A stretch of 64,000 nt of DNA. Source: Candidatus Multivoradales bacterium. GTDB taxonomy: Bacteria; Acidobacteriota; Thermoanaerobaculia; Multivoradales; JAHEKO01. The number at the start of each line of letters is the position of its first letter. Position 1 is the first letter of the stretch. The position numbers were made by a program, and so were the translations under genes. The stretch is from the NCBI GenBank assembly GCA_965223855.1, contig CBDCXM010000009.1, forward strand, positions 1,952,001-2,016,000, in the 5' to 3' direction. The notes below the pieces were generated by a model that was not told the DNA's origin, did not search any database, and was given only the letters and a program-made list of their open reading frames with translations. Positions 28,932-29,880 of the stretch are shown here, piece by piece.

Positions 28932-29880
28932 GTCCGTTTCCAGCGCACTTTCGACGGCCGGCTCGGGCAACCGGGTCGGCCGTTTTCTACAGAGCCCATG
29001 CCACCCGGCGCGGCGGAGCCGCGCCAAGAAGACAAGGGCCCCTTGGCGGCGTAGCCGCCAACCGAGCCGAAGGCGAGGGCCCAGGTATGGGCGGAATGGG
29101 CGGCTTCTAAGTCCGTTTCAGCGCACTTCGACGGCCGGCTCGGGTAACCCGGGCCGGCCGTTTTCGTTGAGCCTATGCCACCCCGGCGCGGCGGAGGCCG
29201 CGCCAGGACGACAAGGGCTCCTTGGCGGCGTAGCCGCCAACCGAGCCGGAGGCGAGGGCCCAGGCATGGGCGGAATGGGCGGTTTCTAAGCCCGTTTCAG
29301 CGCACTTCCGACGGCCGATCCGGGCAACCGGGTCGGCCGTTTTCTACAGAGCCCATGCCACCCCGGCTCGGCGGAGCCGAGCCAGGACGACAAGGGCCCC
29401 TTGGCGGCGTAGCCGCCAACCGAGCCAAAGGCGAGGGCCCAGGCATGGGCGGGATGGGCGGTTTCTAAGTCCGTTTCAGCGCACTCTCGACGGCCGATCC
29501 GGGCAACGGGGTCGGCCGTTTTCTACAGAGCCCATGCCACCCCGGCTCGGCGGAGCCGAGCCAGGACGACAAGGGCTCCTTGGCGGCGTAGCCGCCAACC
29601 GAGCCGGAGGCGAGGGCCCAGGTATGGGCGGAATGGGCGGCTTCTAGGCCCGTTTCCAGCGCGCTTTCGACGGCCGATTCGGGCGACCGGGTCGGCCGCT
29701 TCTCTAGAGTGCCATGACGCCCACGGCGTGGCGGAGCCGCGCCACGAATACAAGGGCCACATGGCGGCGGAGCCGCCAAACCGAGCCGTAGGCGGGGGTC
29801 CAGGCATGGGCGGAATGGGTGGGTTCCAAGCCCTTCCCCAGCGCACTTTCGACGGCCGGCTCGGCAACCGGCGGCCATCT
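28905..29880 (+). repeat. Tandem array, about 5.4 x 179 bp: groEL 3' tail + terminator + structured cloverleaf element
   Basis: Tail stop positions at 28931, 29110, 29289, 29468, 29647 (period 179) and 29829 (CAA, period 182). Confidence 0.95.
28954..28986 (+). terminator. Intrinsic terminator of groESL, re-copied in each downstream repeat unit
   Basis: ACGGCCGGCTCGG-GCAA-CCGGGTCGGCCGT-TTT stem-loop plus T tract. Confidence 0.75.

Follow-up and report, generated by a model that had tools for sequence, protein, structure and literature searches.

Introduction

The repeats of the Escherichia coli tyrT operon date to the late 1970s. In E. coli K-12, 3.1 copies of a 178-bp repeat (RtT) stand behind tyrV, and the annotated rttR begins 7 nt past this gene and ends at the CCA of the tail copy that comes next. 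An RtT unit runs, in order, through a spacer, GGGGAAGGAT (the reverse of ATCCTTCCCC), a core and the forward tail copy ATCCTTCCCCCACCACCA; the core ends in GTTGCC-GCA-GGCAAC and then GA-CCC-GAA-GGG-CGA, and in the folded unit the reverse and forward copies form a closing stem of 10-12 bp. In the passages cited here, rttR is said to be encoded by one repeat unit of the tyrT operon and RttR to have been described in 1991 (Bosl and Kersten 1991, as cited in PMC3318445), and a 2024 bioRxiv preprint (10.1101/2024.07.17.603846) calls its mode of action unknown. Here we describe a tandem array behind the protein gene groEL, in a window of 64,000 nt from a Candidatus Multivoradales bacterium (GCA_965223855.1, contig CBDCXM010000009.1, positions 1,952,001-2,016,000 of the forward strand), where a first-pass annotation had seen a cloverleaf fold and inferred a non-autonomous single-stranded DNA element with its own target-recognition arm. 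The array has a recognizable design: a structured non-coding segment immediately behind a highly expressed host and in the same orientation, with a short reverse copy of the host 3' end at its 5' side and a forward copy at its 3' side that pair to close the core. On balance, we lean toward reading the element as a single unit of an RtT-like module that has groEL as its host.

Window coordinates are used throughout unless a genome is named; G000 denotes the source genome (C9 being its contig 9), G001, G002 and G003 its sister genomes, and L-numbers the fetched loci.

Results

A tandem array of 179-bp units behind groEL

The host gene lies at 27270..28931 on the forward strand (Pfam Cpn60_TCP1, 233.7 bits), as do all features of the array described below. 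Tandem Repeats Finder reports a repeat at 28905-29871 with a period of 179, 5.4 copies and 87% matches; in an alignment of six units, starting at 28905, 29084, 29263, 29442, 29621 and 29803, the sixth reaches about 29915 and ends within its hairpin 1, giving an array of about 5.6 units of 179 bp (28905..29915). Each unit is made up of a segment T, a 13-nt arm a' and a folded core X of about 77 nt. In unit 1, T (28905..28993) comprises the final nine codons of groEL, stop included (28905-28931; 27 bases encoding GMGGMGGF), the 3' untranslated region and a terminator hairpin in which 28953-28966 pair with 28971-28984 ahead of UUUUCU; it is repeated in every unit. A simple terminator scan missed these unit terminators, which RNA folding reveals (-28.6 kcal/mol, z -6.2). 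The arm a' (GCCCATGCCACCC, 28994..29006) is the exact reverse complement of a host site a (GGGTGGCATGGGC, 28901..28913) in the GGM-coding groEL tail, as had been noted at first pass; the duplicated segment begins inside this site, at 28905, and through its first 9 nt a' is paired to the beginning of the T copy that follows (29084-29092). The core of unit 1 (29007..29083) then consists of hairpin 1, the linker AAGAAGACAA and a GGGCCC-closed domain.

Decay is strongest in the distal units: as the copied groEL stop codon, units 1-4 have TAA and unit 5 has TAG, and unit 6 reads CAA at this position. Neither the whole 179-bp unit nor the groEL tail has a further copy elsewhere in the G000 genome. 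The T copies are all closer to one another than to G002 or G001 and so do not single out the native copy. Four sequencing runs, X1-X4, cover the stretch as assembled contigs, in which uncovered parts carry no meaning. One X4 contig joins 28972 to 29509, skipping 536 bases (three units) across a 34-nt ambiguous overlap; this joint may reflect either variation in copy number or a collapse during assembly, and we draw nothing from it.

The design agrees with that of RtT. Both arrays are tandem, lie directly behind the host on its strand and have nearly the same period (178 bp in RtT, 179 bp here), and a forward copy of the host 3' end is the last part of each unit; at groEL, tail and terminator recur in all six units. 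In both, the reverse copy stands about 80 nt after the host site and pairs with the forward copy to close the core, whose last two inner hairpins are a GNA-loop hairpin and then a 3-bp GAA hairpin flanked by GA.

The core folds in a covarying, strand-specific manner

The cloverleaf that had been drawn for each unit was recovered exactly as the minimum-energy fold of both DNA and RNA: positions 28990-29095 fold at -34.9 kcal/mol as DNA (z -4.58) and at -62.8 kcal/mol as RNA (z -4.78), and in either case none of 200 shuffles was as stable. A 9-bp closing stem (28994-29002 with 29084-29092; GCCCATGCC / GGYATGGGC) is followed inward by hairpin 1 (29007-29025) and by a domain at 29036-29082, which is closed by the GGGCCC stem (29036-29041 with 29077-29082) and contains hairpin 2 (29043-29061) and the 3-bp GAA hairpin (29066-29074). 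The best-conserved part of the core is motif M (AACCGAGCCGAAGGCGAGGG, 29060..29079), a C-GA-GCC-GNA-GGC-GA-G hairpin with tandem G.A. Covariation among the copies had also been described correctly, the pair GGCTCGGC/GCCGAGCC being present in units 3 and 4, as had the exchange of GGA, GTA and GAA loops, with AAA in unit 3.

Existence of a covarying family outside the array, likewise anticipated, is borne out by a covariance model of the core (E < 0.001; 61 genomes searched). It found one further copy in G000, at G000:C9:2286957-2287043, giving two loci of the core subfamily in that genome, and five copies in G002, where weaker copies were confirmed on fetched loci (about 10 G002 loci in all). 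In an alignment of 13 family members, standard pairs make up 96.1% of cells (82% in shuffles), compensatory changes affect both sides of 13 of the 25 base pairs, and none of 500 shuffles attains the observed values on any measure; when partners are slid by 1-3 columns, pairing falls to 47% or less. The alignment was fitted to the covariance model, a bias toward structure; from the slid controls and the many double changes we would nonetheless argue that the covariation signal is real. The same alignment holds 13 G.T wobbles as compared with 2 A.C pairs, which identifies the folding strand as the sense strand of the preceding host gene.

The element lies on the strand of the preceding gene at 12 of 12 family loci. 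A close upstream host was confirmed at 10 of these: groEL, tRNA-Ser, and, at 8 of the other 10, a Pfam-validated gene ending at most 220 nt upstream, including genes for a DEAD-box helicase, a CoA-transferase, an aldo/keto reductase and a pyridine-nucleotide disulphide oxidoreductase. At the two remaining loci the upstream frame had no Pfam validation. The hosts whose flanks are duplicated are groEL, a dehydrogenase gene and a tRNA.

Comparison with close relatives indicates that units come and go. Orthologues of groEL in G001, G002 and G003 (three of four genomes searched) have the same tail and a homologous terminator hairpin, without the element; the array is thus a gain in the G000 lineage. 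The conserved tRNA-Ser(cga)-ffs-dnaX locus is empty in G003, holds one unit in G002 and two units in G000, which belong to a different subfamily from that of G002 and have a spacer of their own each, and in G001 contains tRNA fragments in both orientations. These differences imply recurrent, independent gain. In the G002 unit (L087), the native flank (ffs, dnaX) comes directly after the right-hand tail copy; behind the left-hand copy stand 34 bases of foreign sequence and then arm and core.

Other hairpin families stand beside the element at several loci (L085, L086, L092, L093 and L094 of G002, and L081 of G000), including GGGGGACCCGTGCCCCC and long GGCGAAGAAGG...CCTTCTTCGCC hairpins, and at the same loci a GCTGCAGC palindrome recurs 20-40 nt ahead of the arm.

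The reverse arm follows the host

Within the 64-kb window, GCCCATGCCACCC with at most one mismatch has six matches, two in the groEL tail (+) and four in repeat units (-), where 0.12 would be expected by chance; none of 100 shuffles reaches six. For the family at large, inverted host copies were sought in the 30 nt before the core and scored against 2000 shuffles. The match is 13/13 nt at groEL (0/2000 shuffles; 106 nt upstream of the core start), 13/13 nt at L087, the G002 tRNA-Ser(cga) locus (0/2000; 108 nt), and 9/9 nt at L081, the second G000 locus (28/2000; 91 nt). At the tRNA-Ser arrays the match is 17-19 nt. The flank duplications measure 89 nt at groEL, 68 nt at L081 and 49-60 nt at L087, the flank being duplicated in 2 of the 12 other core copies examined; at 9 of 12 core copies, which have no flank duplication, the arm match is just 5-8 nt, a chance level. 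The proposal that the arm complements the flank therefore stands where the flank is duplicated and fails at these nine copies. Since the arm follows the local host at duplicated flanks, the fixed arm that the first-pass annotation had named as the outcome contrary to its reading is not what was found.

All told, a host-specific reverse arm recurs at no fewer than nine loci, meaning that units have been re-fitted and not merely duplicated. The order at duplicated loci is common: host site a, T, spacer, a', core X and T again. The distance between host site and arm remains within 60-108 nt, whichever way T and spacer share it. At groEL, the arm's end, ACCC, pairs with GGGT just outside the duplication, and the position of the arm relative to the start of the duplication varies among loci.

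Arrays of the same design at tRNA genes

Downstream of tRNA-Ser(tga) in G000 are 3.5 units of 172 bp, each with a T running from the T-loop to a trailer hairpin, a 17-nt antisense T-arm and a variant of the core, in which the small hairpin covaries (CTTCC-GAA-GGAAG). A strict scan of 50 tRNA genes flagged seven, of which five are real cases: all four tRNA-Ser genes (gct, tga, cga and gga) and tRNA-Gln(ctg). The other two were a neighbouring tRNA-Val and a doubtful call inside an array. A tandem-repeat scan of the whole genome returned 14 arrays (periods 90-320 nt), and further cases emerged from it behind tRNA-Glu (100 nt x 3.9) and one more tRNA. The same-design arrays of G000 have periods of 100-179 nt. 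The arms of the tRNA arrays (GAGGG.., GCGGG.., CCAGGG..) each fit the T-stem of their own tRNA, and here too the distal units are the most decayed. On units of the tRNA-Ser arrays, the core covariance model gives E values of 0.0006-0.06.

Elsewhere in G002 and G003, several stretches of 61 nt reproduce the 3' part of tRNA-Ser(tga) exactly (e.g., G002:C281:12-72, G003:C290:1732-1817); we take these to be the usual mark of islands integrated there, distinct from the arrays' short copies that start in the T-loop. Rfam returned nothing relevant on the window array, 12 genome loci, 8 viral loci and the tRNA arrays, and no family over motif M at those genome and viral loci. Matches to sX4 (RF02223) stayed below threshold (29-35 bits; gathering 70) and cover tRNA-Ser plus about 80 nt downstream (L181 265-441, L182 670-854 and L087 828-992). 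We took the sub-threshold rows (CC2171, sX4 and microRNA families) as chance or tRNA-caused.

Motif M beyond the element

As the 20-mer AACCGAGCCGNAGGCGAGGG, motif M is the most conserved part of the core. It is rare in the phylum, being found at one mismatch or fewer in 6 of 401 genomes (0 for the reversed control), and occurs in many further phyla as well as in phage contigs. Exact matches number 55 stretches in a species-level genome collection and 91 metagenome stretches, 80 of which were fetched; with the first A removed, the motif occurs in 10 viral stretches, among them contigs of 27-30% G+C. Some matches, lying in coding sequence, are probably due to chance. A metagenome scan with a longer pattern (M plus CC) gave no match, and a literature search found no paper containing the letters of the motif.

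The contexts of the motif are varied. In one IMG/VR phage contig (L198, L199), a repeat of about 95 nt occurs twice and ends 2 nt past motif M, one copy lying between two TnpB genes and the other alone, and in viral context the motif was also seen 100 nt upstream of a small terminase gene. A contig of Alloalcanivorax mobilis (L141/L142) has three M-bearing hairpins with 23-bp stems resembling repetitive extragenic palindromic (REP) elements, flanking a Y1_Tnp gene, an arrangement like that of REPs and their REP-associated tyrosine transposase (RAYT). At L125 (e.g., L125:535-708) and about 20 other Solirubrobacterales loci, M is intergenic, on the ssb template strand, with flanking CGCGCG and AACCCCC hairpins.

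The Y1 gene and other features of the window

The gene at 41127..42041 on the reverse strand, which had been put forward as the enzyme partner of the element, encodes a 304-aa Y1 protein of IS200-like, RAYT-like type (Pfam Y1_Tnp, 27 bits; NCBIfam REP_Tyr_transpos, 45.4 bits against a required 80). It is one of about 25 Y1 copies, and its family numbers at least 19 near full-length copies plus fragments in G000 and about 13 matches in each of G002 and G003, with none in G400, and has expanded like an insertion sequence. Of the 19 copies listed, eight had their flanks read. Seven of these (0-4 and 6-7) have inverted ends GGTGCCGGGTGAATAG / CTATTCACCCGG or variants of these, with short tandem repeats; copy 5 does not clearly have them. 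A second Y1 type has GGTGACAGGATACC ends, unlike the element. We therefore rejected the protein as a partner: it is multi-copy and, in the eight copies read, no end resembles the element.

Just downstream of the Y1 gene (40600-41100) are short CCCTCCTAGAGGTGCC-type repeats and a perfect direct duplication of 211 bp x 2. Repeats of this type also stand beside other Y1 copies (e.g., G000:C9:525160-525614, 1818949-1819326 and 3052675-3052961), and 4 of the 14 long-period tandem arrays of G000 adjoin Y1 copies. TnpB was not found in any of the five genomes searched with each of PF07282 and PF01385, and on this ground we rejected the element as the omega-RNA of a resident TnpB. G041 has the element and no Y1_Tnp match.

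By cumulative GC skew, replication of contig 9 would start at about 0.76 Mb and end at about 2.98 Mb. Of five clear loci, a small sample, two run head-on to the fork, on the leading-strand template: the tRNA-Ser(tga) array and L081. Array direction equals host-gene direction on both replichores.

Upstream of groEL, groES lies at 26926-27219 (Pfam Cpn10, 116.9 bits). The region downstream of groEL has no synteny with the sister genomes and includes a beta-helix protein gene (30026-31393) directly followed by an open reading frame of 2952 aa (31390-40248, +). The only RVT_1 gene of G000 (a 310-aa frame) is in a low-G+C islet at G000:C9:608600-610560 with a small open reading frame, helix-turn-helix-like by eye; the islet looks like a retron or defence module.

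Discussion

We found that the structured segment behind groEL is repeated in tandem, that its 5' arm is fitted to the gene it follows, and that the same arrangement recurs behind tRNA genes. On the reading that we favour, the module most likely acts as an RNA made from the strand of its host, its transcription, processing and any function being inferred. The array would be read through from groEL or transcribed together with it, each unit would be released as a small folded RNA, and the copied host signal would make the 3' end of that RNA, the groEL intrinsic terminator in this array and the tRNA tail at tRNA loci; the last proposal matches the E. coli annotation of RttR, which extends past tyrV to the next CCA. 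Arrays would grow by duplication of whole units, leaving the oldest and most decayed furthest from the gene. Close relatives differ by gain, loss and re-fitting of units to different hosts. Such re-fitting between relatives demands some copying process that makes both the reverse and the forward host copies.

Several points weigh against an RtT-like module acting as RNA. The RtT model itself (RF00391), which scores 133-138 bits on the four E. coli units (gathering score 45), had no match at E up to 1 on the groEL array, the tRNA-Ser arrays, L087 or L081, and our core model reached E 1.2 on the E. coli RtT units; kinship with RtT is therefore one of design and not of a significant match in sequence or structure. 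No sigma-70-like promoter was found within the array, and with a strong terminator in each unit, read-through to the distal units should be limited. Because DNA, too, forms stable GNA triloops and tandem G.A pairs, the wobble asymmetry identifies the strand and not the molecule. In about 20 Solirubrobacterales genomes, motif M lies about 70 nt upstream of the ssb gene and antisense to it, and in other genomes (G400, L134) it lies beside tRNA-Sec and tRNA-Glu with duplicated tails, again antisense to the host; a purely co-transcribed RNA does not account for such loci. Finally, the reading offers no account of how a' and T are made.

Of the alternatives, the one closest to the first-pass annotation is a non-autonomous single-stranded DNA element moved by a Y1 HUH enzyme of IS200/IS605 or RAYT type, the arm being a guide that pairs with the cleavage or target site. 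The arm does stand directly 5' of the hairpin foot, a geometry that resembles the guide of IS608, with its last four nucleotides (ACCC) pairing with GGGT outside the duplication; arms vary with the host, a single strand folds, M hairpins in REP-like 23-bp stems flank a Y1_Tnp gene in Alloalcanivorax, and in one phage contig a repeat ending with M lies between two TnpB genes. We nevertheless consider this mechanism unlikely. The eight Y1 flanks that were read have ends of their own or none that are clear, and the second Y1 type differs as well; TnpB was not found in five of five genomes searched with either family, and an element is present in G041, where Y1_Tnp has no match. IS200/IS605 elements are not known to make long target duplications and favour the lagging-strand template. 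Flank duplications of 50-90 nt are not a known trait of theirs, and an orientation that follows the host gene on both replichores, with two of five clear loci on the leading-strand template, does not fit their strand bias. In addition, 9 of 12 copies have no arm match above chance, G000 holds only two loci of the subfamily, and the arm also pairs with the closing forward tail copy, as does the reverse copy in E. coli RtT, which is recorded as RNA.

Alternatively, one could envision miniature integrative elements or attachment-site scars, in which a tyrosine integrase crosses over in the T-loop or the groEL tail and circles carrying the host 3' end are stacked by repetition. tRNA-Ser and tRNA-Sec are classic integration sites. 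Direct repeats that run from the T-loop to the host 3' end and beyond, with the host left intact and the arrays tandem, would be explained in this way, as would the inserted block followed by native flank at L087, and G000 has five Phage_integrase genes. Units of just 100-180 bp speak against it, however, as do the lack of an integrase within 6 kb beside the tRNA-Ser(tga) array and of a distant second copy of the groEL tail in G000. The compensatory changes and wobble asymmetry point to selection on a single-strand fold and not on duplex protein sites, the reverse arm, with 85 nt between it and the crossover, does not form an inverted repeat of core type, and the spacing between host site and arm keeps within 60-108 nt. 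We hold integration of this kind to be very unlikely.

A further possibility is a retro-type insertion, in which the element's RNA is copied at a nick in the host gene (target-primed) or as a hybrid complementary DNA (cDNA) that recombines, T being a target-site duplication. Integration of a hybrid cDNA is known for the retroplasmids of Neurospora, on which our literature search found no paper. By derivation, a bottom-strand nick at the start of T, with priming at the 3' end of the element's RNA, and a top-strand nick at the end of T yield the order a-T-spacer-a'-X-T, and the same scheme yields the 2-3 nt microhomologies at the X/T joints; T ends at the 3' end of the host transcript, the hosts are highly expressed RNAs, and G000 has one RVT_1 gene. 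That only reverse transcriptase, however, sits in a low-G+C islet next to a helix-turn-helix-like gene with no element nearby, the reverse arm would not be produced unless a guide already existed, and there is no cDNA evidence, so that we rate this explanation, too, as very improbable.

The least probable explanation, a passive by-product in which slippage or unequal crossing-over copied the gene end together with an unrelated hairpin-rich 3' untranslated region, devoid of function or mobility, could draw on the fact that two T copies suffice for array expansion by unequal recombination and on the X4 contig with three units fewer (28972 joined to 29509), but the 34-nt ambiguous overlap at that joint may be an assembly collapse, and recurrence of the design has already largely refuted it, given the same core family at unrelated loci in two genomes, the host-specific reverse arm at nine or more loci, the compensatory changes and a design in common with E. 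coli RtT.

Returning to the RtT-like module, one could extend the reading to a single cross-phylum class of self-propagating elements, which would build reverse and forward copies of a highly expressed host's 3' end, mRNA or tRNA, by a templated copying step, with the shared AACCGAGCCGNAGGCGAGGG hairpin as a handle for the machinery; this broader proposal is tentative, and we think it rather doubtful. If motif M were such a handle, the modules would be linked to phage and transposon biology. A version at a protein gene means that the design is independent of tRNA features such as the T-arm, the CCA and recognition by RNase P, and that its requirement is for a host transcript's 3' end, which narrows the possible mechanisms. 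As compared with the near-palindromic T-arm, a groEL tail of 13 unambiguous bases also makes a clean test system.

Among other known systems, REPs and their paired forms (REPINs) with RAYT enzymes share with the element GC-rich hairpins behind genes, folding on one strand and a GTAG-like loop, and in Alloalcanivorax the REP-like stems flanking a Y1 gene contain motif M; the element differs in having few copies, long host duplications and a host-specific arm. We rejected membership in this class, there being two loci in G000 and about 10 in G002, none of those in G000 beside a Y1 gene. An inserted element that is complementary to its host flank and needs co-transcription with a highly expressed host is familiar from the R2 5' ribozyme and from the pairing of exon-binding and intron-binding sites (EBS-IBS) in group II introns. 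In contrast to these, the element matches no ribozyme or intron family and encodes no protein, and the host segment is duplicated. The R boxes of integron attC sites read RYYYAAC / GTTRRRY; as these are not found in the closing stem GCCCATGCC / GGYATGGGC, attC was rejected. By reasoning alone we also weighed recombination of single-stranded DNA hairpins of CTX-phage or attC type, staggered integration like that of CRISPR or casposons, an HDV/R2-like ribozyme, an RNase P guide and priming as in prime editing. A literature search on small tRNA-targeting elements found no paper describing the array design. RtT is the comparison that we retain, with these differences: the host is the protein gene groEL here and a tRNA in RtT, although tRNA hosts are met at the Ser, Gln and Glu arrays of G000; the copied tail consists of 27 coding bases plus a terminator (89 nt) as compared with 18-19 nt of tRNA; and the reverse arm measures 13 nt as compared with 10 nt. 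What the present arrays add to the RtT design is a protein gene as host, their density within a single genome and, for motif M, a wide reach.

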